Below, one piece after another: positions 5,560-62,611 of a stretch of DNA of 64,000 nucleotides. Position numbers and translations under genes: made by a program. A model generated the notes under the pieces. It made no database searches, had not been told where the DNA came from, and worked only from the letters and a program-made list of their open reading frames with translations. Numbering within the stretch: the stretch's first letter is position 1; every line of letters starts with the position of its first letter. Source of the DNA: Haliotis cracherodii (Eukaryota); the NCBI RefSeq assembly GCF_022045235.1, contig NW_027266265.1, forward strand, positions 3,224,001 through 3,288,000. Reading direction: 5' to 3'.

Positions 5560-5834
5560 TACGTTAATCCCCAAAAATGACTAATCCTTTGTTTTGACGT
5601 AAATATCCCCATGTTTTATTCTCAAGGGATGAGTTGATAACGCTGCACTTAATCGATGTTATATATCAATCAAATCTGTTAAACCCGACATGACCAATAT
5701 ACAGCCATGTCATGTTCATGTGCTGTTGCAGGCTGGCTGGCTATATATTGCTCCGCCCTGGTTGTCGAGCCACCAGTCTCAAGCAGGCAGGCAGTCCGTC
5801 AGTTCAGACTTTAAACCAACACACAGCAGTCATC
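5560..5834 (+). promoter_or_regulatory. Core promoter/5'UTR of CA copy 1
   Basis: TGACTAA (AP-1-like) about 5579, TGACGTAA (CRE-like) 5595-5602, CCAAT 5694-5698, TATATA 5742-5747, Inr-like CCAGTC about 30 nt downstream and TCAGTT at 5799. Conserved in copies 2 and 3. Confidence 0.65.
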
Positions 5835-8800
5835 ATGAGTTGGGGATACGGAACCGAGAACGGTAAGTTGCTGCGGTGTGATAGTTCTTATTGTTCTTTA
5901 ATATTTCTCTGCTCGCTTTGTTCTTTATTCAGGTCAGATGTATTTCATGTGTGTTAATGAGCACTCTTAATTTTGTTTTTGCACCTTTCAAAAATCAGTT
6001 TGCAACCGGAATCTTTTCTCTGTGAAGGTGACTTTTTTAGATTTCTTATTTTTGATTTCCAACTTTTTAAAAAGATATTGCATTAATTTGGCAGGACATT
6101 GATAACGGCTTTTGAAACACAGTCAATATATTTGCAGTATTCTTTCTTTTGGGACAGTTCTTAGTATAGATAGATGATTTATTTAATAAACTCATTATCA
6201 CATCTATTATTTTTTAGATTCATTTACAAATATTTTTTGGTATAGTTTTTATTGTTTTAATTATAATCGTTCACATTTATTTTTGTCTTAAATGACACTG
6301 TCGTTGTAGGTGTAAGTTTGTTACCCTGTTGCTAGGTGAGACGTATATTATTTTTACCGAGCAAGTACAATATACAGTAACTAAGCAACATCTCGTCCTG
6401 ATGTTGAAATCGAATAATATTCGTTTGTTTGAATCCATACACCTTTTTATGAGCGAATATGACAGTTAGAAGTATTGCACAGAAAACGTTTTACAATGTG
6501 TATTTATCCTTCGGCATACTCTTCACGGGGTGTGTCCCCTTGTTGTTCAGTGAATGTAAACCGCATTCGTTCGCGTTTTGCCCTTGAACTAAACGACCCC
6601 ACATTTGTCGGCGGCTTGATATTTGAAATACACACTGGGTTCCGTCTTGTGCTACATCTGTTAACATAAGTCTAGACGCACCGATGGTGTGTATATGTAC
6701 TATAGTTTCCCCAAGGAGCGCATGGTAATGGGAGGAAGGTTCGTCTTCTTATATAAAACGGTACATGTTTTTCAGTTACCATACCTTTTAATAGTAAGCC
6801 CATTATGACTTTGTAATATTTTTGCCAACTTGACAGTTGGAGTTTGGTTGGTTAAGGGACTTCTTCAAAGCGTTTTGCATATCTATTTCAAATACCTGTG
6901 CTACTTCGTAGAAACACCTTTTTTATAACTTCATCTAAACATATTACAAACAGGCGTCTCTCTTAAGGAAACGTCCCTAGTTACGGGAATGCATCACAAG
7001 TGACATCTATATCCTTCTCTTAACGTAGATCTGTTGTGAAGGTGAAAGTGACAAATATCCATTAAGGTTGTCAGGTGGGGCTTATCAAGTCAGTGCACAC
7101 GTGTCAGTTGTCTGGCAGTACACCATCGACCTCCCGGTACCCGCAGTGCCTTCACTCAGGCGCACGGCGGACTGTGCATGACGTATGCCGGTCCTGATGG
7201 CTCTCTGTGGACATTAATCCTTAGTACCACGTGCCGTAAAGTAACAGCATGTAACATACACTTCTTAGAAAACTAGAACCCTTGAGGCAGATTCAACAAT
7301 GTTGTTTTCTACAAGTGTTCAGTAACTACAATAATTATGATATTGAGTAGAAGCAATGTAGACGGGTAGAAATATGAATCTCAATTAAGTGGGATGCATA
7401 ATTTCGGATCTTGCACAATCACACAATATTTATTTTGGATTTAATTGTACTACTTTGACAGATATTCTTGTACGGATATATCTGTGTATAAATCTGATGG
7501 ATTCGTGGAAAATGGTGTTCAGATAAGCCAGATGAGTTAAGATAAGATAAGCCATCCTATAAAGACCATACGGTTAAAAGCATCGACAAACCGAGGTACA
7601 ATGAAATCCTTTTTATTTGAAATGATTAAAGTAAATAACAGATGATTCTTACTAACCTGGGTTAAAAACGGACATTTGTAATTTGTACACCCTTCATATG
7701 TGGTTTTTAGCATCTTACTCATGTTTTAATGAGATGATTATCATAATATTTTTTATAAAATCAAGGGTATGGCCTTGACATGCTCCTGTTCTAGTGAGAT
7801 GGTTACTACCATATTGTAAAAACAAAAACGTGCAAACCATTGACATATCTCATTACCATACTGTATACACAAGAGTGTGTATAGCTTAGTCACGTATATA
7901 AAGCAACAGCTGGTCCTTCGAGAAACACTATACGTTGAATATTAATATAGAACAAATACTACAGTCCGAAATGTACAATGTACAATGAAGGAACAGATAT
8001 CTCATTGTAAGACATATGAGGACGCTAATTCGCAAGGACGTGTCATAGTATATATCTCTCCAGTTAATTCCCTTTGCGCCGCCATGCTCGGTTTAATCCA
8101 GTACACCACACACACAAGGTGACGAATGTTTTGTATATCAAACATGGCGTGCTCGTTTAGGTGCGTCTCAAAAAATGAATTAAATAAACTTAACGGCGCC
8201 TTTCACGATAGGCCAAATCAATTTGTTATATGTGTATTGACAATATGCCTCTGAATGATGCCTTACATAAATCTTTTATTGGGTTGAATTTATGACATTT
8301 CAAAATGCATTTAAACTTGTGATAAATAATATTCTGGGTAATAACGGATGTTCAACGGATGCTCACATACTTGCTGACATGGTTTTATGGGGCAATTACA
8401 CCAAACTTAAATACAATAAACATTAAACAGGCAAGAGCCGAAATTCACTTGAACAAGTTGGCGGGGTATGTCAGCAGCATGGAACATGTCAGGCCATGAC
8501 ATTGGTGGGTTACACTGGCACCCGTTGACAATACCAGGTGTCACCTAACCACTGTGTGCGTGTCAGCGTAGCCCAAGAACATAGGCAATCAATGCCCAAT
8601 ATCTACCATCTCAAATACTGTTCCGACTTTAATTGAAATTTAAAGTAGACAAACGTTTATTGATAACTTCTTGTTTATGTCACCTTGCCGTGTCTGTCAA
8701 GTCATGTTGTCTAATATCCGTATGTCACATTCTCTGATAACATTGTGCCACATTGTCTTTCACGTGATATTCCTGTTTTTTTCAGGACCCAAGTCATGGG

Positions 8801-11800
8801 TCAACAACTTCCCCATAGCCGCGGGCAAACAACAGTCTCCTGTGGACATCAACTCGACCAATGTCGAGTTCGACCAGAAGCTCGAGGCCAACCCTCTTTC
8901 TGTCAAGTACTATATCGAACAGAACATGGACTTCGAGAACACAGGGTTCTCCGTCAAGGCCAACATCCGGGAACCATCAAGTAAGTTCCACTTTAAATGA
9001 ACATCTTGCTTATTTAACGTGAGACAGTGAATGCTGTCTAACGTCACAACCAGCAATACCCTAGTCCATCACAGAGGCTCGTACAGAGTCGAGCCTGGGC
9101 AGTACAAGCCAATGGATGTACTCTCGGGGTTCTATAAAACCCAACAACCAAGTCTTCGAGTCTGACCACTAGAGCCGTTTTAGTCCACCCGTATGACAAG
9201 CATTGGTTGCTTAGGTGCATTTCTACCCGGTGTCCTCCAACCTTCCAACCATACCCAACTGCCCCCCCCCCCCTACCCCCCTAAACCATCCACCCATTTC
9301 ATTTGTCTCCACTTTACCCAGCACATCATCCGTTTGTCCGTCAAGACAGCTTGTTACAAAGATGCGAGGAGTTGTGTTGAACATGGTAACATATGTGTAA
9401 AATAAAATCTCCATTCTTTAATGCAGATAATCATAAACCATAAACATAATATTGTATAATCATGAATTACAATTTCCCAGCCATATCGATACAACGACAT
9501 CCTTTCTTCAACTGCAGAATCTGATTTGCCTATATCTAGCATGCTGATGTTGAACAATCTGTAACTGTGTTGCAGCTATCTCAGGGGGCCCCCTTGAAAG
9601 CACATATCAACTTGAGCAGTTCCATCTCCACTGGGGGTCATGTGACGAGAGGGGGTCGGAGCACACAGTGGAGGGCAAGACATTCCCAGCCGAGGTACTC
9701 TCTCCTAGACCACATGTAAAATATATCCGTCGTATATAAATGGTTATTTCAGTCAATCATAAGGCCACGACAAACGTATATTTTCCCAATGTATACAGAC
9801 TCGAGAAATGCGAACTTAAAGGGGAAGTGTACACGCAAAAATCACTTTCTTTCTTTTTCTAAACAAAACGCAATTTTAGAATTAGTTAGTATCTGTGTTT
9901 GAAAATATACACTCATTTTTTTTCACAGTGAAAGTAGGAAGCTCACAATAGTGTGAAAGTGATATGCCGTTATGAGGCCTTCGTTTTACGAGCGAAATAG
10001 GCCTGAGTTATCCCCCTTAGATTATGACGTAATTGGTGCCAATTTAACTGGGTCCCTGTCTATTCTCAACGCAAAAGATATCAAGGACCAGTTTGCGGTA
10101 AAACAACATGGTCTACGACACACTCCGGCGCAGTGGTGACTCAGCATAACACAATTCTGGCTGGCATCTGAGATGCTAGAATCACAAACTGTACCTACAC
10201 CACGTGAAGCGGCTCTAACAAAGCATGATGACGTCATAATGTTTATCAATTGGCACCAATGACGTCATATTGCAAGGGACATAAGCCATGGTGTTTTTGT
10301 TATGGAAATAGAACACTTGGAAAATGTGAAAAATATAAATCGTTTTAGTGCAAAAAATATGTTAATTGAATATGATGTTTTTTTATATTTTTGTCTATGA
10401 CACTTCTATGTTAACACTTTTAATGTGGAAAAAGTACAAGGAAAAAAGGTTCATTTCCGTGTGAATTTGCCCTTTAATGACTTAATGACGTACCTTCTAA
10501 CGTAATGGGTCGACAACAACAAAGATCTTGAGTCACAATTACTCTCCACTTAAACACGTACAGTCACAAGTAAACAATATTCTTTTCGATATTCAATTAT
10601 GTGCTTGTTTTCTTTACAAATGAATATCTGTTTTCAGCTTCATCTAGTCCATTGGAACCGAGATAAATATTCCAGCTTCGGCGAGGCCGCAGACAAACCT
10701 GATGGTTTGGCAGTGTTTGGCATCTTCTTGGAGGTAGGACCCTCAACTAAAGTCTCGAGCTAATGGAACGTGTACATTATTCCTTTAGGCTTGCGTGACG
10801 AATGAATCGCATGTAAAATATGTAATACAAGGAAAAGGTCTTGGTGCAAAACGTCCCAAGTGAATTTTATATTTTACGAATGCTTTTCACACTTTGACGA
10901 TTAACTGATCTCAACACGAGAAGGCCGTAGCTCCGAATTAAACTAATGAAACTATATTCCCATTTGTCTTCAGGTTGGCGCTGAGCATCCGGGTTTCAAA
11001 CCTTTAACCGACGGTTTAGATGCTGTCAAGTTCTGTTCCAAACATGAACAGGTCAAAGGCCAGTTCAACCCCAAATGTTTCCTCCCAGGTGAATTCTCAT
11101 TCATTCATCCATCTTTCCCTCTTTCCATCTGTCTTTACCCTACTCGCTATCCGTCAATTCATTTTCCTTATTCCAGAAACAAAGGGCTCCGTTCATACCC
11201 AGTAATGGATTCATTCATTGTTAAATTCCCATCATAGTAGTACTACTACGGAGAACAATAATGTCTATCATCTATATGCACTGGATGACTCAATATGAAT
11301 AGAATTATTTATAAGGCAGATACGCCGAATATGCAATTTGGCAACTGGACACGGTTAATTAATGAAAGTGTAAAGTGTCTGAATTAACTTACTAGTCTTA
11401 ACCTAAGCCCTGTATGTGTATGTGGGATCATGTACAATACTTCTTCTTCTCTCCAGAAACTCTGTCCGAGTACTGGACTTATCCCGGGTCTCTGACCACG
11501 CCCCCCTGCTACGAGAGTGTCACGTGGATAGTATTTAAAGAACATATGGTGGTGTCGGAGAGTCAGGTAAGCACACATTACCAACATGTACAGAAAATAT
11601 AGTTAATCAAATGTTTGTAAGGTCGTGTGAAGAGAACATATATTGAGAAGCCAAAGGAACTCTCACTTGATGTTGTCATGTTTGAACTTAACATCGCTTG
11701 AAAATATCTTAGGTTAGCAATAGTATATCCCAAAATACACTGTGCTGGCCCTAAGTCAGCACTCATACTTCTACGTGGTTATCTTAAAAAATATCATTTG

Positions 11801-12362
11801 ATTTAAAACGTATAATATGAAAAAATGGGAAAACTTTTTCGCATTATACACTGAAGGGTATCTTGAAAAATCTTGTCTTTCAAAATCATTGAGTCTGCCT
11901 TTTTCAAACACGGTAGGGGTCCTGTGGTTGCAAATTCATTTCTGATCACAGTCTTAATTGAACCAATCTATTTGTACACATAATAACCCAGCCACTGTTT
12001 TTTTCGAACTATTGGTTAATTTGATATACATTTAACAACAGTTCGTTCAATTTCCATCTATGTATTCTTTCTTGTTCCTCAGCATGTGTTTATGTAGGTT
12101 GGGACAATGGTTACTCCCAATAACAATATCCAATACGTATGTATCGTATATAAGAACCACTATAGTCACAGTCTAAAAGTTGAGACGAATATTAAATCCA
12201 CTGTCTCTTATCATTCCATGTCTTAGTTTTAAAAAATTCTGCTTTCAGTTAAAGGCCCTTCGAAGCCTGTGTTGGGGGGACTGTGACGGCGACTGCATCG
12301 TCGACAACTACAGACCACCGTGTGAGCTAGGCAGCAGAAAGATCCGAGCAGCATTTCATTAA
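5835..12362 (+). CDS. Alpha-carbonic anhydrase, cytosolic type, paralogue 1 (7 exons, 258 aa)
   Basis: Exons 5835-5862, 8786-8980, 9576-9694, 10638-10733, 10974-11088, 11457-11566, 12249-12362. All introns GT-AG with consistent phases; 777 nt total. Motifs MSWGY, QSPVDI, QFHLHWG (His94/96), GSEH (Glu106), ELHLVHW (His119), [15 protein letters not shown] (Thr199), DNYRP. No signal peptide. Confidence 0.96.
9820..10473. mobile_element. Kolobok-like non-autonomous DNA transposon in intron 3 of CA copy 1
   Basis: TTAA TSD (9816-9819, 10474-10477), AG...CT termini with imperfect TIRs, internal inverted repeat TGACGTAATTGGTGCCAATT / AATTGGCACCAATGACGTCA. Absent from copies 2-4. Confidence 0.8.
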
Positions 12363-12905
12363 CGATATCTGACTGACACACGGACAACGGCCCCGTCTGG
12401 CGGAAGGAATTGTAGAACACTGCCGCAATTGTTTGTGACTATCACAAAACAACGATGGACTGACATTGTCAGATCTCATCAGAAGTATAACAGAGCACTA
12501 GATATGAATCATGATCAATAGAATTCAGCTGGAATGATTCAATGAGCTGACACTATTCAATGTGTGTTCCGGGAGAACGAAAGGTTGACTTGAGCATGTG
12601 GAGTTATTGTTTCATGTATAGAGATCACGAGTAATGGTGGGAAATCATCAAGGAGTCCACGTGGTGTGATATTGTACCCCGATGGCAAGAATTGATGAAA
12701 CATTCATTCGCGATTTGCCGACTCTGTGGACAAACGAAGCGCCAATACTATTGGTCGCTGAACAAGGGGTCCCACCATCACTGAGTATCAGAGGTTCTGG
12801 CGTGAATGGATCATGACATTTCAACATTAATGCAACGTCTTTCATCATATCATTGTACGGAAGTCCATAGTGACGCAAGTCACTAGAATTTTCTTTTGCT
12901 ATTGC

Positions 12906-40900: not shown

Positions 40901-41879
40901 GCAATTTTGCAACTGGACACGGTTAATTCGTGTTAATAAAAATAGTGTCCAAATAAACTTCTATTCTTAATCTTACCCCTGTAGGTGTATGTAGAAATCA
41001 CGTTTAATGTTTCTTCTTCTCTTCAGACACAATGTCCGAGTACTGGACTTATCCCGGGTCTCTGACCACGCCCCCCTGCTACGAGAGTGTCACGTGGATA
41101 GTATTTAAAGAACACATGGTGGTGTCGGAGAGTCAGGTAAGCACCCATTATCTACATTTTCAAAGGATATATTTCATTAAAAGTTAATTCAAAATAGTGT
41201 ATCGTTTGAAGAATTAAAATGAACATAAATACAGGAGCAAAAGATACTACACCTCTCAGCTGATTTTATCATATGTTTGAACTTCAGTTGGGATTATCTT
41301 AGGTTAGCAATATTATATCCCAAACATAAACTGTGCTGGTGGGAAGCCAGCAGTCATGCTTCCACGTCGTTACATTTTTAAAATTAGGATTAGATTTACA
41401 ACTTTAAAAATGAATACATACTTTTCACATAATACACATCTGCTGAAAATCACAGTTCAAACATGTGGTTGAAAATTGATAGTCTTCATTGTACCAATTT
41501 ATTTTTACATTAAATGGACAAGAAGGCTCCTGTTTGTCCCGTAGGCAAAATTACTATTTCATTCGCCGTGTAATATCAATTTTGATCTCAAATAAGAACA
41601 AACATTATTCATTCTAAGAAAATCAGCATATAAATATATGAAGCCCTTATACTCATCGATATAAAAACATCAACGCTGGGGAATAAAGCGACTAAAAGTT
41701 GAGATTTAAATCAAATCCATTGTCTCTTTTCATTCCATCCCTGAATAAGTTTATTCTGCTTTCAGTTAAAGGCCCTTCGAAGTCTGTGTTGGGGGAACTG
41801 TGATGGCGACTGCATCGTCGACAACTACAGGCCACCGTGTGAGCTAGGCAGCAGAAAGATCCGAGCAGCATTTCATTAG
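34951..41879 (+). CDS. Alpha-carbonic anhydrase paralogue 3 (7 exons, 258 aa)
   Basis: Exons 34951-34978, 38026-38220, 39115-39233, 40012-40107, 40547-40661, 41027-41136, 41766-41879. Intact frame and motifs; about 7 aa differences from copy 1. Confidence 0.96.
35165..36300 (-). mobile_element. RTE-X-like LINE remnant in intron 1 of CA copy 3
   Basis: KTKLIV...[11 protein letters not shown]...[10 protein letters not shown] and [13 protein letters not shown]. Confidence 0.8.
38440..38680. repeat. About 64-bp C-rich tandem repeat in intron 2 of CA copy 3
   Basis: CATCCAACTGTCCTCTCCTCAAA...CATCCAACTGTGCCCCCTCAAAC, 3-4 units. Confidence 0.9.
38720..38888 (-). mobile_element. SINE family B in intron 2 of CA copy 3
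   Basis: 14-bp TSD ATAAATGCAAGGAG. Confidence 0.92.
39430..39698 (-). mobile_element. Family C retroposon in intron 3 of CA copy 3
   Basis: Matches family C; nested in a larger insertion at 39241-39706. Confidence 0.85.
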
Positions 41880-48146: not shown

Positions 48147-49629
48147 GGTTTGTTCCCACTGTGTCGGCAGATTATTTCGTATTAATTAAGATAATTCGGA
48201 TTAGCCGTCATGCTTTGCTACACTGCCGACACTAATTAGTATATTTCATGAACTTGGCATTGTTATTAACCAACTCTAGTTTTGTTATCCGAACTACTCG
48301 TACGTGCTATTGAAGGCCCTGATGTAGTGAACACCGTCCTCACGTTCTACAGCGACCACGGCAGCCTGTACACGGCTGTCAAACACGTGTTTGTCTGTAA
48401 AGGTTCTACTACACCAAATCAGAACCAGTTTGGACAGTGCGGTTTTCGTAGGGGCCTTCAGTGCAGATCAAGAGATATCTGCAGGCTGTGATTGGAGGAT
48501 ATTCTGTAAGATTTTTATGTCTTCAATTGTACATCCATCCAGTTATAAAACTAACCATGTTTTTCTATATTTAGTACTGTCTTTTTCGGCATGATGACTT
48601 ATGCTGAATGTGACCACAGCTATTTTCAAGTAGGTGACATTTGGTGCGAAACTGGGGGTGGTGTGTTCAGCTTCCTGTACTCGGAAAAGGGGCTGGCTAA
48701 GCTAGTCATTTCTTATTTTTTTATTGCTGCTCTAAGGCCAAACTGTGCACACACGTACAGGTAATAGCTGTTGAATGCTTAGTTATTTAAAAAAAATATA
48801 ACGTTACTATAGAAGTCTATGGGAAAACATTTGGTTGTGTGTAACCTGTAAACTGAATGGTTGCCTTTTTCACTTCCGACAGAAAGTTTGGCGCAATGTT
48901 CAGAAGTGTGATCTGCAAACTGCCTCAGCAAACAATCCTGATGTTAACCTTTTTGTTAACCAGAACCGCCGTGATATTGCTGAGTGCGGCGTTAAACAAC
49001 AAACAAACCAAACCAATGAACCAGAACCAGCCGGCACGATGGTATCTTCCCAAAACGTAGACCTGCCAAAACGCAGACCCATTAAAACAACACTCGTTAT
49101 GGCTGGTTGCATCAGTAATAAGTACCCTGTACCCTTGATTATGTAAAATGGTATCACCCATGTAACAAGAAAGAAAGCTGGGTAGATTTCACAAAATTTT
49201 ATTCAAATGTTATTTCATTGTCATTTATGATTATCAGTCATTTTCACTTGTTTATCATCAGTGGACCAACTGCATCCAGGTACTGAAGGGGTGTCTTTTC
49301 ACGGCGATGAAGCTGTTCCTTGAGTCGGACAAGGCGATGTTCTTTATCTCTGTAGACAACCTTCCTGGGTGGCGGTGCTGCTCCAAATCCAAATTGCATC
49401 TGCGCTAGTTTCGCTCTCCGAAATTTCTACCTTCTGGATCAGTTCGATAAATCTGAAGATGTTTGGATGCGTGTGCTGATTCTTGCCGATTCTGGAGTGG
49501 AAACCTTCTAGGTTGTTGTTTGTACGATATTCCCCATTTTAATCCTTCTATTGTTGTAGGGATTAGCACGGAAGACAAGCTAAATTACCCTAAACAATAG
49601 CTGCCGGCACAGTGTGAACACCCCGCCCT
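48147..49629. mobile_element. Mutator-like (MULE) non-autonomous element inserted in the TATA box of CA copy 4
   Basis: Imperfect TIRs (GGTTTGTTCCCACTGTGTCGGCAG... / ...CTGCCGGCACAGTGTGAACACCCC). Transposase relics GCLFHFRQKVWRNVQ (plus, about 48856) and RTNNNLEGFHSR...HPNIFRFIELIQK (minus, about 49530-49430). Confidence 0.8.
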
Positions 49630-49699: not shown

Positions 49700-52600
49700 A
49701 TGCAATGGGGATACAGCACCGAGAACGGTAAGTTGCTGCGGTATAAATTATTCGTATTCTTTAATATTCCATTTTTGCATTGTAAGCCTTCTTATTTTTG
49801 ATTTTATAACTTTCTAAAATAGTATTGTATTAATTTGACACAGTAGGTGTATTTGCAGTATTCCTCCTATTGGGCAAGCGGTCTGAAAAGAATAACGACT
49901 CAAGAATGTAAAATCATTGTAAAAAAACACAAAATAGCTACGATTGAGAGTAAATATAATGTAAAGACGTGAAAGGTAAATATACTTATGACGACGTGCA
50001 TTATAAATAGTGATTTCACATTTTATTTCACAATATATGAAGGTTTATATATATCATAAAGTGACTGGCAGCGTTCACTTAGTGTAATTACAGTCCTGAA
50101 AATTCACAATACACCCGTACACGTACGTGTATTAAAGATCAACGTCATATCTAAACGGTGTCTACAAGTTTAAAAGCATGTCACACAGATAATTTGTTTA
50201 AAAGAACAGCTTCAAGATCCTTACAACAGTTTTGTTATTTTGACAGTTTTATAAATCTAGGTGTATTTCTGTATAAACTGTAATAAGGACAGTGCATAAG
50301 GAAGTGGATTTCATCTTCTATCTTGTTTAAATTACAGATTTTTGATTTTCTCTGGTCGGCACACGTGTTGGTGTATCTGCCTCTTTCAATCTCCAGATTA
50401 TGACAACTTAATTTAGTTAGAGCTAATCTATTATCTTTACACTTTACTATGAATACACAAAGTCAGCGATCTATAATAAACCCACTCAGCCACAGAGGCT
50501 TCCACAAAAATGAAAGTCCGACAACTAGTAGTCTAGATCACGTACTTTTTTTGTGGAAGCCTCGGTGGCTGAGTGGGTTAGATCGCTGACTTTGTGTGCT
50601 GGCGATTAGGTGCCTCGCTATGGCAAGTGTGGGTACGAATTCCGGACTTTTACCCAAAAGGTACGAGAATCTGTACTTTGCTAAGAAAGTGTTATCCTAA
50701 ATATAATTTCTTTTACACTTTACTGCTGAAACATACTTCTAAAGCCTAAATTTATCGGTTATAATTCCTTCATATCTCAGTTTTTGTGTTAACGTGATTA
50801 CCTTCAATCAGAAATTTGTTTTAAATAGCTTCATTGAAATTTGTGCAAGATGCATTTTCACTTTGAATTTGGGAAATAAGTGTGTCTTCAGATGTTCAAA
50901 AGATTGCAGGACATTTTGGGTGAGGCCAAATATTATAGCATTTCTCAGGCGCTGGAAAAACAAATGGACATATATATGTACAGAAAGAGGGTACAGTCTT
51001 CTATTACCTGTCACTCCCAGGATCTGCTTTGCTATTTTGATAGTGAACTCACATAACAAAGTGATTATGACCAATTTTGACACATTTCGGATAATGGGGA
51101 TGAGAAGTTGAATGCAGTGTACATGTTCCCATGTTTCAGTGCCACTCCAAGATTGTAGGAGTCCACTACATCAACGATTTGATTGCCCAATTTAAATTGA
51201 AGTTTATTTTCTTTGACGATCCTCCCAATAGAAGTATCTTTGCTACGTTAACCTTAAGTTAAACCCTCATAATGGGAATGCATCACAGGTGACACCATAA
51301 CAAATCTACGTTAAGAGAAGGATATAAGTGACAATCCCCGATTCAGGTTGTCAAGTAGGACTTATCAAGTCAGAGCACTCGTGTCAGTTGTCTGGCAGTA
51401 CACCATCCCGGTACCCGCAGTGCCTTCATTCAGGCGCACGGCGGACTGTGCACCACGTATGCCCGCCCTGATGGCTCTCTGTGGACATTAATCCTTAGTA
51501 CCACGTTACATAAAGTGACAGACAATTACTAGAAAATAGTGTTTAGGTAAATTATCCTATAATGACCATACAGTTAAAAGCATCGACAAACATACTCTTG
51601 AGGCAGGATGAAATCCTTTCATTGGGAAATGATTAAGTAAATAACACATGGTTGTTATTAACCTGGCTGAACAAAACGGACATTTGTAATTTGTGCATCC
51701 TTCGTATGTGTTATTTAAACTTTTGTTACTGTCTTCATGGGATTAAATTATTAATTATAACATTGTTTATAAATTACCGGTAAACCCTAGATATGTACCT
51801 CTTTAAATGTGATGGTTGTTACCATAGTGTATAAACAAGAGCGTGCATAGTCAGTCACGCGTGGAAAGCAATAACTGGTCCTTTGCGAAACAATATACAA
51901 TAAATATCAATACAGAGAAAAAGTACCACCATCCAAAATATGAAATGTTATTGCCCCGAATGAGCAGGTATGTCCGTGTGAGACCAATATGGACGTTCAT
52001 CGTATGGACGTGTTAAGTTATATCTTCCTCCAGTGAATTCCCTATGTGCCGCCACGCACGGCTTAATCCAATACAGTACACACACGAAATGACGTTAACG
52101 TTGTTTTTAATGTCAGTATCAAACATGGTGTGTTTATTTGGGGGCGTCTCACAACATGAATGACATAAACGAAACAATGCCTTTTACGAAATGCCAAATG
52201 CATTTGTTATATGTTTAATGACATGTTTTTATGCCTCAGAAAGATATGGGCATTTAACCTTACATTGGGTTGAATTTATAACATTTCAAAATGCATTTAA
52301 ACTTGTCATTACTTAAATTATTATCATTAGCATGTACAGATTAAAATAAGAAATGCTGCAAAGAGGGTTTGGGTGATACTGGCACAGTCAGGCTGGTCAG
52401 GGTCATCATCTGCTCAGGGTCCTGGCCCCCTCTGCACGCAGCACAGACAGCGAATGGGACTTCTCCCAGGAAGCGCTGCCTAGTCGAACCCATCCAGAAC
52501 TGTTCGGAGAATGTGAAGACTCCCCAACACTGCAGCCTTCTGCATTACCCAGATTGTCAGAAGAACTGTATTTCTGGTAGCAAACCTGGGTACTCTCCCA

Positions 52601-55600
52601 ATGTCAGTCAAGGGATTGGGAGGTACCAAACCTAAAGCACCAAGAACAATGGGGAGTCAGACAACTTAGTACTTGGGATGCAAGCGTGAGATTATTATAA
52701 GTAACGTAACAGTTTTGTCTTAAAGCCGTGTCTGTCATGCCACGTTGTCTGATATCATAATGTCACGTTGTCTGATATCTTTATGTCACGTTGTCGGATA
52801 TCTTTATGTCACGTTGTCGGATATCTTTAAGCCACGTTTTCTTATATCCTTATACCACATTGTCTTGTCATCATGTGATATTCTTGGTATTTCAGGACCC
52901 AAGTATTGGGTCAACAACTTCCCAATAGCCGCGGGCATGCAACAGTCTCCTGTGAACATCAACTCGACCAATGTCGTGTTCGACCAGAAGCTTGAGGCCA
53001 ACCCTCTTTCTGTCAAGTACTTCATCGAACAGAACATGGACTTCGAGAACACAGGGTTCTCCGTCAAGGCCAACATCCGGGAACCGTCGAGTGAGTCACT
53101 TTAAATGAACATCTTGTTTATTTCACGCGAGACAGTGAATGTTGTTTAACGTCGGTAAGATCAGAAGCTTGATAATAGTCGAGTGTGGGCCATGTAAACC
53201 AGTGACAGAAAGCTTGAACAACGACCAACGTTATTGCGATTCAGTGCAATCAACCAAGTCATCGAGTCTGCCCACCCGAGCAGTTTTACTCCACCCTTAG
53301 GAGAAGCATGGGTTGTTGTGGCATTCCTACCGCGAGTGAGCATGAGGGGGTAACACATAAACTCTCCTCATTTCGACCCGTGAAGATAGGATAGGTCTTC
53401 AGCAACCCATACTTACCATAAAAGGACACTATGCTTGTCGTAAGAGTTGACGAACGGGGTCAGATGGTGACGCTCCTTGACTTGGTTGATGCATGTCATC
53501 GTATCTCAATTGCATAAATCGATGCTCATGATATCAATCACTGGATTGTCTGGTCCAGATTCGATAATGAACTGACCAACGTCATATAGCTGGACTATTG
53601 CAGAGTGCGGCGTTAAACAACAAATATCTCACATCTCCTAACTCCACATTACAATCACCATATCATCCACACCTATCCAACTCTGCCCCCTCAAACCATC
53701 CATCCACACTCAACTGTCCCTTCCTCAATTACGCCAAATCTGGGGGCACGATTGGGCCAGTCGCCTAAGGCGCCGCGACTCGCTGTGCAGAGTTGTGTCC
53801 CTTAGGCACCCCAGAAACCTATGATTGTGGATTCGAATCCCGGTTCGCACCGATTATGTTTCTAGGTTTGTCAGCACCATACCCGTGCTCGTGGGTTTCA
53901 CCGAAGTGGTAAACGTCTGAGACCTTCAACACTTCGGGCTTTCCTCCCACATTAAGCTGACACGCCGCGGTATAACTGTAATAGTGTTAAACTCACTCAC
54001 TACTCGAAATCTGCCCATGTCTGGCATGCTGATGTTGAACATTGCGTAACTGTGTTGCAGCTATTTCAGGGGGCCCCCTGGACAGCACGTATCAACTTGA
54101 GCAGTTCCATCTCCACTGGGGGTCATGTGACGAGAGGGGGTCGGAGCACACAATGGAGGGCAAGACATTCCCAGCCGAGGTACTCTCTCCAAGACCACAT
54201 GTAAAATATATCCGTCAGTGTATAAATGGTTATTTCACTAAATCACCACGACAAACGTCTTGTCTCCCCATGTACGTATACATATGTGAACTAAATTACA
54301 TACATTCTAAAGTATTGAGTCATATTTTTTCTCCACTTAGACTGGCCAGAAGAAAACAAGTACAATCTTAAGTAAACAATATCCAATATTTTCGATATTC
54401 GATTCGATGTTATGTTCGTTTTTTGCAACTTGATATTTGCTTTCAGCTTCATCTCGTCCATTGGAACCGTGATAAATATTCAAGCTTCGGAGAAGCTGCA
54501 GACAAGCATGATGGTTTGGCAGTGTTTGGCATCTTCTTGGAGGTAGGCCCCTCAACTAAACTCTCCGTTCAATGAAACGTGTACATTTTTTCCCTCTTGG
54601 CCGGCGGAGCGAAAGAAGCGCATGTAAAATATATGTACTACAAGGAAAGGTTCGATGCAAAACATAAAAAGGGATTTTTTTATTTTGTGAATGCTTCTCA
54701 CACTTTGACGATTAACTGATTTTCGGCTGATGTCCATAATTAAAATAAGGAAACTATATTCCTTTCTACAATCAAGTACTTTACATAAATTAGGGTAGAT
54801 GGATCATAACAAGACGTACAATATGAGTATTCTAATCTGAACTTGGGGTTCCTGTGTTTCAACCCTTCGCTCCAAACCTGTCTCATCCAACATTTAAGTG
54901 AACGCATTGAGAGAGAATTAAGTGACACACATTTGAGTGTGATTTACACGCATTTATCTTCAGGTTGGCGCTGAGCATCCGGGTTTCAAACCTTTAACCG
55001 ACGGTTTAGATGCTGTCAAGTTCCGTTCCAAACATGAGCAGGTCAAAGGCCAGTTCAACCCCAAATGTTTCCTCCCAGGTGAGTTAAGTTCTCATTCATT
55101 AATCCATGTTTCCATCTGTCTTTACACTTCTCGTTATCCGTCAATTCATTTTCCTTATTCCAGAAACGTAGGGCTCCGTTCACATCCAGTATTGTATTCA
55201 TTCATTGGGAATTTTATATCATTGCACGGAGAACAATAATTTCAACTATATACACTGGATGACTCAGTGTGAATAAAATTATTCAAATGGCGTATATGCC
55301 GAAAATGCACTTTTTCAACTGGTCATTGTTATTTCGTATAAATGTAACAAAAACAGGGTCTAAGTTGACTTACGATTCTTAACCCAAGCCCTGTATGTGT
55401 ATGTAGAGACCATGTACAATAATATTTCTTCTCTTCAGACACAATGTCCGAGTACTGGACTTATCCCGGGTCTCTGACCACGCCCCCCTGCTACGAGAGT
55501 GTCACGTGGATAGTATTTAAAGAACACATGGTGGTGTCGGAGAGTCAGGTAAGCACACATTATCTACATTAATAAAAAAATGTAGTTAATTGAAAATTGA

Positions 55601-56349
55601 TTAAAATCTGATTTAGTCAAATGTTTGAGGGGTGTAATAGATACAACAAACAAATTGAGGAACAAAAGAAACCATACCTACAAGTTGATTTTATCATATG
55701 TTTAACTTCAATATCTAAGGTTAACGATATTATATTGCCAAAAATAAACTGCTGGCGCTAGGTCAGCACTCATACGTGGTTATATATATCTTTTAAAATA
55801 TGATTTTGTTTAAAACTTTTAATAATGAAATTGTTTTTCACATAATAATACACATCTGCGGATCGGTATCCGAAACATCATATCTTTCAAAAAAGTAAAT
55901 TTGCATTTTTTTATCACATTTCCAACATGGTAGAGGATCTTGTAGTTGCAAATTCATTTCTTATCTCTCTTTTCACTGAATGAATTTCATTTTAAACATT
56001 ATTATTCAGCTACGGAACTGTTGGTTGAATAGACATACATTCAAAACTACTTTCGGTATACTTTCTTTTGCCCCTCAGTATATGTGTATGCGAGTAGATT
56101 CACTCCCAATGGGAATACCATATGTATGTATCTTACATAAGAACAACAATGATCTGTCAAAAAGTTCAGATTAAATCCATTGTCTCTTATCATTCCATGT
56201 ATAAGTTAAAAAACGTATTCCGCTTTCAGTTAAAGGCCCTTCGAAGTCTGTGTTGGGGGGACTGCGACGGCGACGGCGACTGCATCGTCGACAACTACAG
56301 GCCACCGTGTGAGCTAGGCAGCAGAAAGATCCGAGCAGCATTTCATTAG
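49700..56349 (+). CDS. Alpha-carbonic anhydrase paralogue 4 (7 exons, 260 aa)
   Basis: Exons 49700-49727 ([10 protein letters not shown]), 52896-53090, 54061-54179, 54447-54542, 54964-55078, 55439-55548, 56230-56349 (2-aa DG insertion). Intact frame and Zn ligands. Confidence 0.95.
49890..51230 (-). mobile_element. RTE-X-like LINE remnant in intron 1 of CA copy 4, with nested insertions
   Basis: Paralogous to 35165-36300. Confidence 0.65.
50449..50712 (+). mobile_element. tRNA-derived SINE fragment with a fold-back inverted 5' end
   Basis: GCCTCGGTGGCTGAGTGGGTTAG (A box)...GGTACGAATTCC (B-box-like), preceded by its own reverse complement; flanked by duplicated TTTACACTTTACT. Confidence 0.65.
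52335..52700 (-). mobile_element. 3' fragment of an R4/NeSL-like (REL endonuclease) non-LTR retrotransposon
   Basis: Minus strand [11 protein letters not shown]...[18 protein letters not shown]. Confidence 0.7.
52735..52865. repeat. 23-bp tandem repeat upstream of the exon 2 acceptor (copy 4)
   Basis: ATGTCACGTTGTC(T/G)GATATCTTT, about 6 units. Confidence 0.9.
53375..53624 (+). mobile_element. Family C retroposon in intron 2 of CA copy 4
   Basis: Matches family C. Confidence 0.85.
53743..54003 (+). mobile_element. SINE family A in intron 2 of CA copy 4
   Basis: Matches family A; ends about 57 nt before the exon 3 acceptor. Confidence 0.88.
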
Positions 56350-62216: not shown

Positions 62217-62611
62217 AGGTGATGTGAAATGGGGTTAAACGTCNNNNNNNNNNNNNNNNNNNNNNNNNNNNNNNNNNNNNNNNNNNNNNNNNNNNNNNNN
62301 NNNNNNNNNNNNNNNNNNNNNNNNNNNNNNNNNNNNNNNNNNNNNNNNNNNNNNNNNNNNNNNNNNNNNNNNNNNNNNNNNNNACTAGTCCGGACTAATG
62401 CCGATTTTATTGTACTATCCATTGAGATACCATGCTTAACTTAATACCCCACAGTATACTGACCCCGAGCCGACCAATCCTTGTTTTGTGCCCCTTAATG
62501 CCGAGCGCCGGGCAGGGTAGCAACAAGTACAATCGTTTACCGTCTTTTGGTTTGGTGCGGCCGAGGATCGAACCCCGGACCCCCGCTCACCACCAGACCA
62601 CGGAGGCGGTC
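62217..62611 (-). mobile_element. Meta-type SINE (family D) spanning an assembly gap
   Basis: Both ends match family D; the gap coincides with its internal CA/GT tract. Confidence 0.82.

Follow-up and report, generated by a model that had tools for sequence, protein, structure and literature searches.

A cysteine cluster in the 230–240 loop of four tandem cytosolic-type carbonic anhydrases of Haliotis cracherodii

The gene array

The window, by which we mean the whole 64,000-nucleotide (64-kb) stretch of Haliotis cracherodii contig NW_027266265.1 analyzed here, carries four alpha-carbonic anhydrase (alpha-CA) genes in tandem, all on the + strand. According to our exon models copy 1 occupies 5835..12362 (+; 258 amino acids with 8 cysteines), copy 2 23301..27433 (+; 258 amino acids, 8 cysteines), copy 3 34951..41879 (+; 258 amino acids, 7 cysteines) and copy 4 49700..56349 (+; 260 amino acids, 7 cysteines). 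Each gene has seven exons, and GT-AG borders and open frames are found throughout all four; the exons of copy 1 are 5835-5862, 8786-8980, 9576-9694, 10638-10733, 10974-11088, 11457-11566 and 12249-12362 (+). A preliminary description of this DNA had singled out four versions of a Cys/Asp-rich motif in proteins with 7–8 cysteines each. A six-frame search of the window, together with the exon models, recovers all four motifs as they were given, and the cysteine counts above agree as well. The motif always lies in exon 7, the last coding exon, which in copy 1 (12249..12362, +) encodes the loop, the sequence NYRP and Cys246 (12321-12323).

Any two copies differ at 7–18 residues (93–97% identity in the paralogue comparison) and at 12–22 synonymous codons, and their introns and shared non-coding blocks are only about 70–91% alike. 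Because of this residue, synonymous and non-coding divergence in each pair we regard them as paralogues and not alleles; the last two values rule out uncollapsed haplotypes. The nearest named proteins, whose names are automatic, are the H. rufescens carbonic anhydrase 2-like isoform X2 (P0003) and the H. rubra carbonic anhydrase 2-like protein (P0004); a literature search found no functional study of either. P0003 is 100% identical in exon 2 and has the copy 4 loop, yet neither it nor P0004 is identical to any window copy. Three assembly gaps (15529-15677, 21627-21762 and 62244-62383) fall in the window, two of them between copies 1 and 2, and in view of these gaps and of the lack of an exact match to P0003 the array may contain further copies.

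Several other features accompany the genes. A 23-mer repeated 12 times lies 3′ of copy 1 (13418-13697), a 67-mer repeated 3.5 times lies in intron 2 of copy 3 (38443-38680), and part of copy 1 intron 3 (9800-10500) is a dispersed repeat, with deep contig coverage and numerous variants in all four sequencing runs used below. Four stop-free stretches of 127–160 codons, between or within the genes (21991-22470, -; 30198-30647, +; 35969-36349, -; 14274-14729, +), resemble transposon fragments and may derive from such elements.

Splicing was assessed with contigs from four public runs, which we presume to be RNA. The joint that leads into copy 1 exon 7 (11566-12249, GT..AG) was found in three of the four (X1, X2 and X11), and the X2 contig contains all five joints among copy 1 exons 2–7 and matches the window with 0 differences from 12245 to 12700, a segment that covers exon 7 and its 3′ flank. 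The loop is therefore part of the spliced message, and these joints rule out that it is misread intron sequence. At 12359 a contig end of run X8 goes on, right after the stop codon, with sequence that matches about 12752 onward, possibly owing to a 3′ UTR intron or to a deletion in one paralogue.

Upstream of a TATA-like box, copies 1–3 have about 350 bases in common, while the promoter of copy 4 (49250-49620) differs, and regulation of copy 4 may thus depart from that of the other three. Matches to the MRE consensus number 0, 1, 2 and 1 per upstream kb in copies 1–4 (0.34 expected), and a single ARE-like site near -131, common to copies 1–3, lies within a generally conserved block; we judge both scans uninformative. 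Residues 20–55 of the H. rubra protein P0004 map onto window positions 5722-5834, where the TATA box and 5′ leader lie, so its N-terminal extension is likely a gene-model artefact, and a targeting extension at the N terminus is ruled out on the same ground.

Catalytic residues and cysteines of the four copies

The numbers of the catalytic residues and of residues 23, 64 and 198 follow alignments to CA II/VII, to which the copies align from residue 2–3 through the end; as judged by this alignment, signal peptide and membrane anchor are absent. P0003, which is near-identical to the window copies, matches PF00194 with E 1.3e-82 (E 0.14 for exon 7 alone). His94, His96, His119, Glu106 and Thr199 are intact in all four copies, as is the hydrophobic pocket, where residue 198 is Leu as opposed to the Phe of CA III. 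In copy 1 the zinc ligands His94 and His96 (local His91 and His93) are encoded at 9623..9631 (+) and His119 (local His116) at 10641-10643 (+). None of the copies shows the loss of zinc histidines that marks the inactive CARP-type proteins, all three being present, and none has the His64 proton shuttle of the fast CA II type, since in the alignment Phe occupies this position in all four (8947..8949, +, in copy 1). By these residues the copies are cytosolic-type alpha-CAs without the His64 shuttle, and catalysis is predicted. Their net charge is -9 to -12.

Residue 23 is Ala in every copy, which bears out the earlier statement that the Cys23 partner of the secreted-CA disulfide is missing. Cys202 (11507..11509, +), the equivalent of Cys203 of the secreted enzymes by alignment to the disulfide-engineered CA II 4hba, is thus left without its partner. 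Since the copies are cytosolic-type CAs lacking Cys23, their thiols are plausibly free.

The Cys/Asp loop of copy 1, Leu228 to Cys237 (12267..12296, +), aligns with the 230–240 surface loop of human CA II and has Cys229 at 12270, Cys233 at 12282 and Cys237 at 12294, together with four acidic residues. The copy 2 loop (27338-27367, +) keeps a CCxxC arrangement, that of copy 3 (41784-41813, +) has Asp232 changed to Asn, and that of copy 4 (56248-56283, +) has a 6-nt insertion which adds DG. A CW pair is present in copies 1, 3 and 4, CC in copy 2, and FC in H. rubra P0004; P0003 and P0004 share Phe64, Cys97, Cys233 and Cys237 with the window copies. Altogether three substitutions and the one two-residue insertion separate the four loops, and this is the extent of the variation among paralogues that the preliminary description had noted; all three cysteines are kept in all four copies. 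Variable columns amount to 3/10 in the loop and 20/248 elsewhere (Fisher p 0.049, or 0.008 counting the indel), a comparison for which the loop was picked post hoc and in which an N-terminal stretch likewise attains 3 in 10. The proposed CxxxCxxxC spacing applies to copies 1–3 but is broken by the DG insertion in copy 4, and the sequence RPPCEL, described as following the motif, is present but separated from it by IVDNY.

Outside the loop, Cys97 (9641..9643, +; the position of CA II Leu100) occurs in all copies and is a candidate partner of the loop cluster. From CA II topology we presume that it and residues 166–167 lie close to the loop; a literature search for contacts of these residues with the loop gave nothing useful. 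Cys167 (11034..11036, +) is confined to copy 1, with Arg in copies 2–4, and adjoins a position that is Cys in 17 of 18 members of the heterobranch clade discussed below. Cys181 (11076..11078, +) aligns with Cys183 of CA VII (3mdz), the glutathionylated cysteine of CA III/VII (PMC6098850, in the part available). CA III Cys188 and CA VII Cys217 have no counterparts, as no copy has a cysteine at 182–201 or 203–228.

Two predicted structures were compared, that of P0003 as the abalone model and that of the Aplysia protein P0049. The P0003 model has a mean pLDDT of 96.9 and a TM score of 0.94 to CA II, and the loop is its lowest-confidence internal block (pLDDT 83). Both models place isolated beta-bridge residues at the equivalents of 229 and 237, from which we infer that these two residues, both Cys in abalone, would pair with each other and close the loop.

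Loop cysteines among homologues

The homologue set consists of the best 120 of 3702 matches, less two from Haliotis and two that are fused or truncated, which leaves 116; it is rich in molluscs and fish, and its members are related to one another. In this set Cys makes up 154 of 1284 loop residues (12%) and 474 of 28687 elsewhere (1.65%), a roughly 7-fold enrichment in which the fish share. The Cys-free loop of CA II therefore reflects mammals. That CA II has no loop Cys, as had been noted, is correct, but it does not set the abalone proteins apart, for cytosolic CAs of teleosts, lamprey and bivalves have loop Cys, and so do human CA XIII and CA VIII (one each). Zero, one, two, three and four loop cysteines are found in 35, 32, 24, 23 and 2 homologues, respectively, and Cys at the 237 position in 49/116, bivalves, teleosts and lamprey among them. 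A total of 7–8 cysteines is not distinctive either, as 38 of the 116 have at least seven (median 5.5 per domain). From 90 of 150 more distant representatives 117 loops could be parsed, of which 37 contain Cys, with no common spacing, and a search for homologues with the loop alone gave three candidates, the sole matches being the two Haliotis proteins.

The particular spacing fares less well than the cysteines themselves. Conservation of CxxxCxxxC in orthologues, which the preliminary description had proposed as a check, is not seen: the exact pattern occurs in 2/116 homologues and is absent from copy 4 and from H. rubra. CCxxC, on the other hand, occurs in 17/116, and its named bearers are exclusively gastropods (Gigantopelta, Lottia, Patella, Aplysia, Elysia, Plakobranchus, Arion, Candidula and Bradybaena); the copy 2 loop is closely similar to that of Gigantopelta. 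In a clade of 18 heterobranch-snail proteins (57–80% identity, mean 67%) Cys229 and Cys230 are each present in 18/18, Cys233 in 14/18 and Cys166 in 17/18, and positions 235–237 are variable. Cysteines unconserved in relatives had been named in advance as an outcome that would count against a role for the loop, and in this clade the opposite was found. At position 233 most homologues have a polar residue, yet abalone, limpets, Gigantopelta, heterobranchs and a chiton keep Cys there. Judged from these alignments, the conserved unit is CCxxC and not the CxxxCxxxC spacing, and, mammalian CA II aside, the loop appears as a hot spot where Cys recurs, its gastropod version being under selection.

Two unnamed proteins, P0010 and P0014, combine Phe64 and Cys97 with CxxxCxxxC in a longer loop and fall outside Haliotis in the tree; their likeness to Haliotis is possibly convergence.

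Absence of His64 is common, 64 of the 116 homologues being without it. Moreover, the cytosolic CA of the mussel Mytilus galloprovincialis, an apparent dimer with Lys64, has a kcat of 4.1e5 per s (PMC6010126, in the part available). A non-enzymatic role therefore does not follow from Phe64, and the metal-buffering subfamily that the preliminary description suggested from the loop cysteines together with this residue is putative. The proteins of Physella, Biomphalaria and Lymnaea (P0044, P0064 and P0071) have His64, Asn in place of Cys233 and Cys at 100. They nest among Leu64 relatives in the tree (branch support 82), and the freshwater pulmonates possibly regained the proton shuttle.

Possible roles of the cysteine cluster

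Our tentative preference, which we hold with less than even confidence, is that these are ordinary enzymes with a selected gastropod Cys cluster that acts as a reversible, putatively redox-reactive thiol patch. CCxxC, kept in copy 2, would be the ancestral form. Haliotis would have acquired Cys237 and Cys97, and from then on either member of the CC pair could have been dispensed with; Cys230 would then have been lost from three of the four abalone copies by one base change. In the reducing cytosol the loop thiols would be free; under oxidative load they would become glutathionylated or, alternatively, a Cys229–Cys237 disulfide at the base of the loop would staple it, catalysis being predicted to remain largely unaffected by the loop. 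The retention of thiol number while position shifts (CW, CC, FC and the copy 4 insertion) fits such a patch, as do the loop Cys counts, which form a continuum and not an all-or-none site, and the correspondence of Cys181 to the glutathionylated Cys183 of CA III/VII; the models make the 229–237 disulfide possible. There are also precedents for CAs with surface thiols in CA III/VII (PMC6098850) and RvCA5 (PMC12899995), both as described in the available parts of these papers. Against a thiol patch stands the missing counterpart of CA III Cys188 and CA VII Cys217. Tight CC and CxxC clusters are, in addition, more typical of metal sites. The four acidic residues of the copy 1 loop are also unfavorable, given that in CA III/VII thiols with acids nearby are reported to be less reactive (PMC6098850, available part).

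A rather doubtful candidate is a second, thiolate metal site for Zn (or Cd/Cu if abundant) built from the loop and one nearby Cys, with ligands that migrate between lineages: abalone would use Cys97/229/233/237, heterobranch snails Cys166/229/230/233. Cysteines at 97, 100, 166 and 167 plus those of the loop add up to 4–5 in 6/6 Haliotis and 18/18 heterobranch proteins and to 4 in just 1/88 of the remaining ones, although this set of positions was selected post hoc in proteins with 6–10 Cys, and the five proteins from limpets and Gigantopelta reach just 3, 3, 3, 2 and 0. Both losses within the heterobranch clade are apparently offset, as P0040, without Cys166, has CCDDECC and the three Hygrophila proteins without Cys233 have Cys100, and the acidic flanks would favor cation binding. 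Cys97 accompanies Cys237 in 8/9 cases (Fisher p 0.004, raw counts), but this covariation is gone on the tree (median p 1; the tree-controlled tests have 4–9 independent pairs overall and exclude P0007 and P0121, which show a fusion or truncation in the loop). In a structural Cys4 zinc site close relatives would be expected to space the ligands identically, which is not found within Haliotis, where paralogues 93–97% identical have CW, CC or a two-residue insertion and H. rubra has FC; moreover, the loop block has the poorest internal confidence of the abalone model, and that 97 and 166 lie near the loop is presumed from CA II topology. In a broader proposal, His64-less gastropod cytosolic CAs in general would have a four-Cys second metal site on the 230–240 loop with a migrating fourth ligand: abalone would use Cys97/237, sea slugs and land snails Cys166, and freshwater snails Cys100. 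Such a site, which would tie the enzyme to zinc, cadmium or redox status, we consider unlikely. The cysteines could instead for the most part be substitutions that a flexible and dispensable loop tolerates, filling small hydrophobic positions at its base, with the paralogue differences due to drift after recent duplication. The CA II 230–240 surface loop is described as flexible, and removing it is reported to have increased the melting temperature (PMC4519908, available part, citing Boone 2015). Many homologues have hydrophobic residues at 229, 230 and 237, so Cys may just fill small hydrophobic slots there, and the Cys columns 181 and 202 are retained no less well than the loop cysteines; the absence of a common spacing in distant loops and the median of 5.5 Cys per domain point the same way. 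The invariance of Cys229 and Cys230 across the heterobranch clade at 57–80% identity and the wide retention of Cys233 at a mostly polar position argue against tolerance, which we think unlikely.

Two further roles have little to recommend them. Palmitoylation of cytosolic proteins is common at vicinal CC pairs, and CC occurs in 35/116 loops, so that an S-acylated CC or CxxC might hold a cytosolic CA at membranes, close to ion transporters. The flanks, however, are acidic and neither basic nor hydrophobic, the proteins carry the net negative charge given above, and the CC pair is lost in three of the four copies; S-acylation, which the preliminary description had also raised, is thus a poor fit and very improbable. 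As for the Cys/Asp loop relaying protons in place of the lost His64, Cys233 occurs in 0/52 proteins that have His64 and in 28/70 of the others, and the Hygrophila branch combines His64 with loss of Cys233. Nevertheless, 42/70 non-His64 proteins are without Cys233, the tree-controlled comparison has a median p of 1 with 4–6 independent pairs, too few to reach significance, and the loop is a peripheral surface element; we consider a relay of this kind extremely improbable.

Returning to the putative thiol patch, comparison with better-known enzymes shows where the abalone proteins stand. Human CA II and CA VII resemble them in fold (TM 0.94–0.95), in sequence (46% identity to the listed chains), in the full catalytic set and, for CA VII, in Cys183, but differ in having His64 and no Cys in the 230–240 loop. 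CA III/VII (PMC6098850) and the tardigrade RvCA5 (PMC12899995) are, in the available parts of these papers, likewise Cys-rich with surface thiols and without the conserved disulfide, and CA III also lacks His64 (PMC6010126, available part). Their reactive cysteines are elsewhere, however, at 183/188 in CA III, at 183/217 in CA VII and spatially separated in RvCA5, whereas the abalone proteins have a cluster in the 230–240 loop; Cys181 occupies the aligned position of Cys183, its reactivity being putative, and no copy has a second candidate at 188 or 217. The other CCxxC gastropod CAs share a loop with Cys229/230/233 and have Leu or Ser, not His, at residue 64, but they are only 50–59% identical to the abalone proteins and lack Cys237 and Cys97, and the heterobranch ones add Cys166. 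The M. galloprovincialis CA is, like those of abalone, a molluscan cytosolic alpha-CA without His64 but differs in having Lys64; cysteine is mentioned 0 times in the available part of PMC6010126, and the Mytilus proteins of our homologue set have 1–2 loop Cys. Two Pacific abalone CAs, in the portion of their reports available, have 337 and 349 amino acids, lengths unlike those of the window copies.

Second metal sites described for CA II are at His64, Cys206 and the N terminus and none is in the 230–240 loop (PMC4730368, available part), and an oyster mantle CA was docked with two Zn on histidines (PMC10892192, available part). Our search of the open literature, outside of which lie subscription sources including older fish and invertebrate CA biochemistry, found no paper on Cys in the 230–240 loop. 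Although alpha-CAs are a very familiar enzyme family and the abalone genes do not amount to a new system, a CCxxC cluster that runs across gastropod cytosolic CAs, in a loop that is Cys-free in mammals and in company with loss of His64, seems to have gone unremarked. The four abalone copies form a natural series of variants of this loop (CW, CC, Asp to Asn, and an insertion). If the second metal site is real, an alpha-CA would have a thiolate site of natural origin, with a bearing on how shelled animals handle metals and control their acid-base balance; if the cluster is a redox patch, it would extend the idea developed for CA III/VII to molluscs, at a different site on the enzyme.
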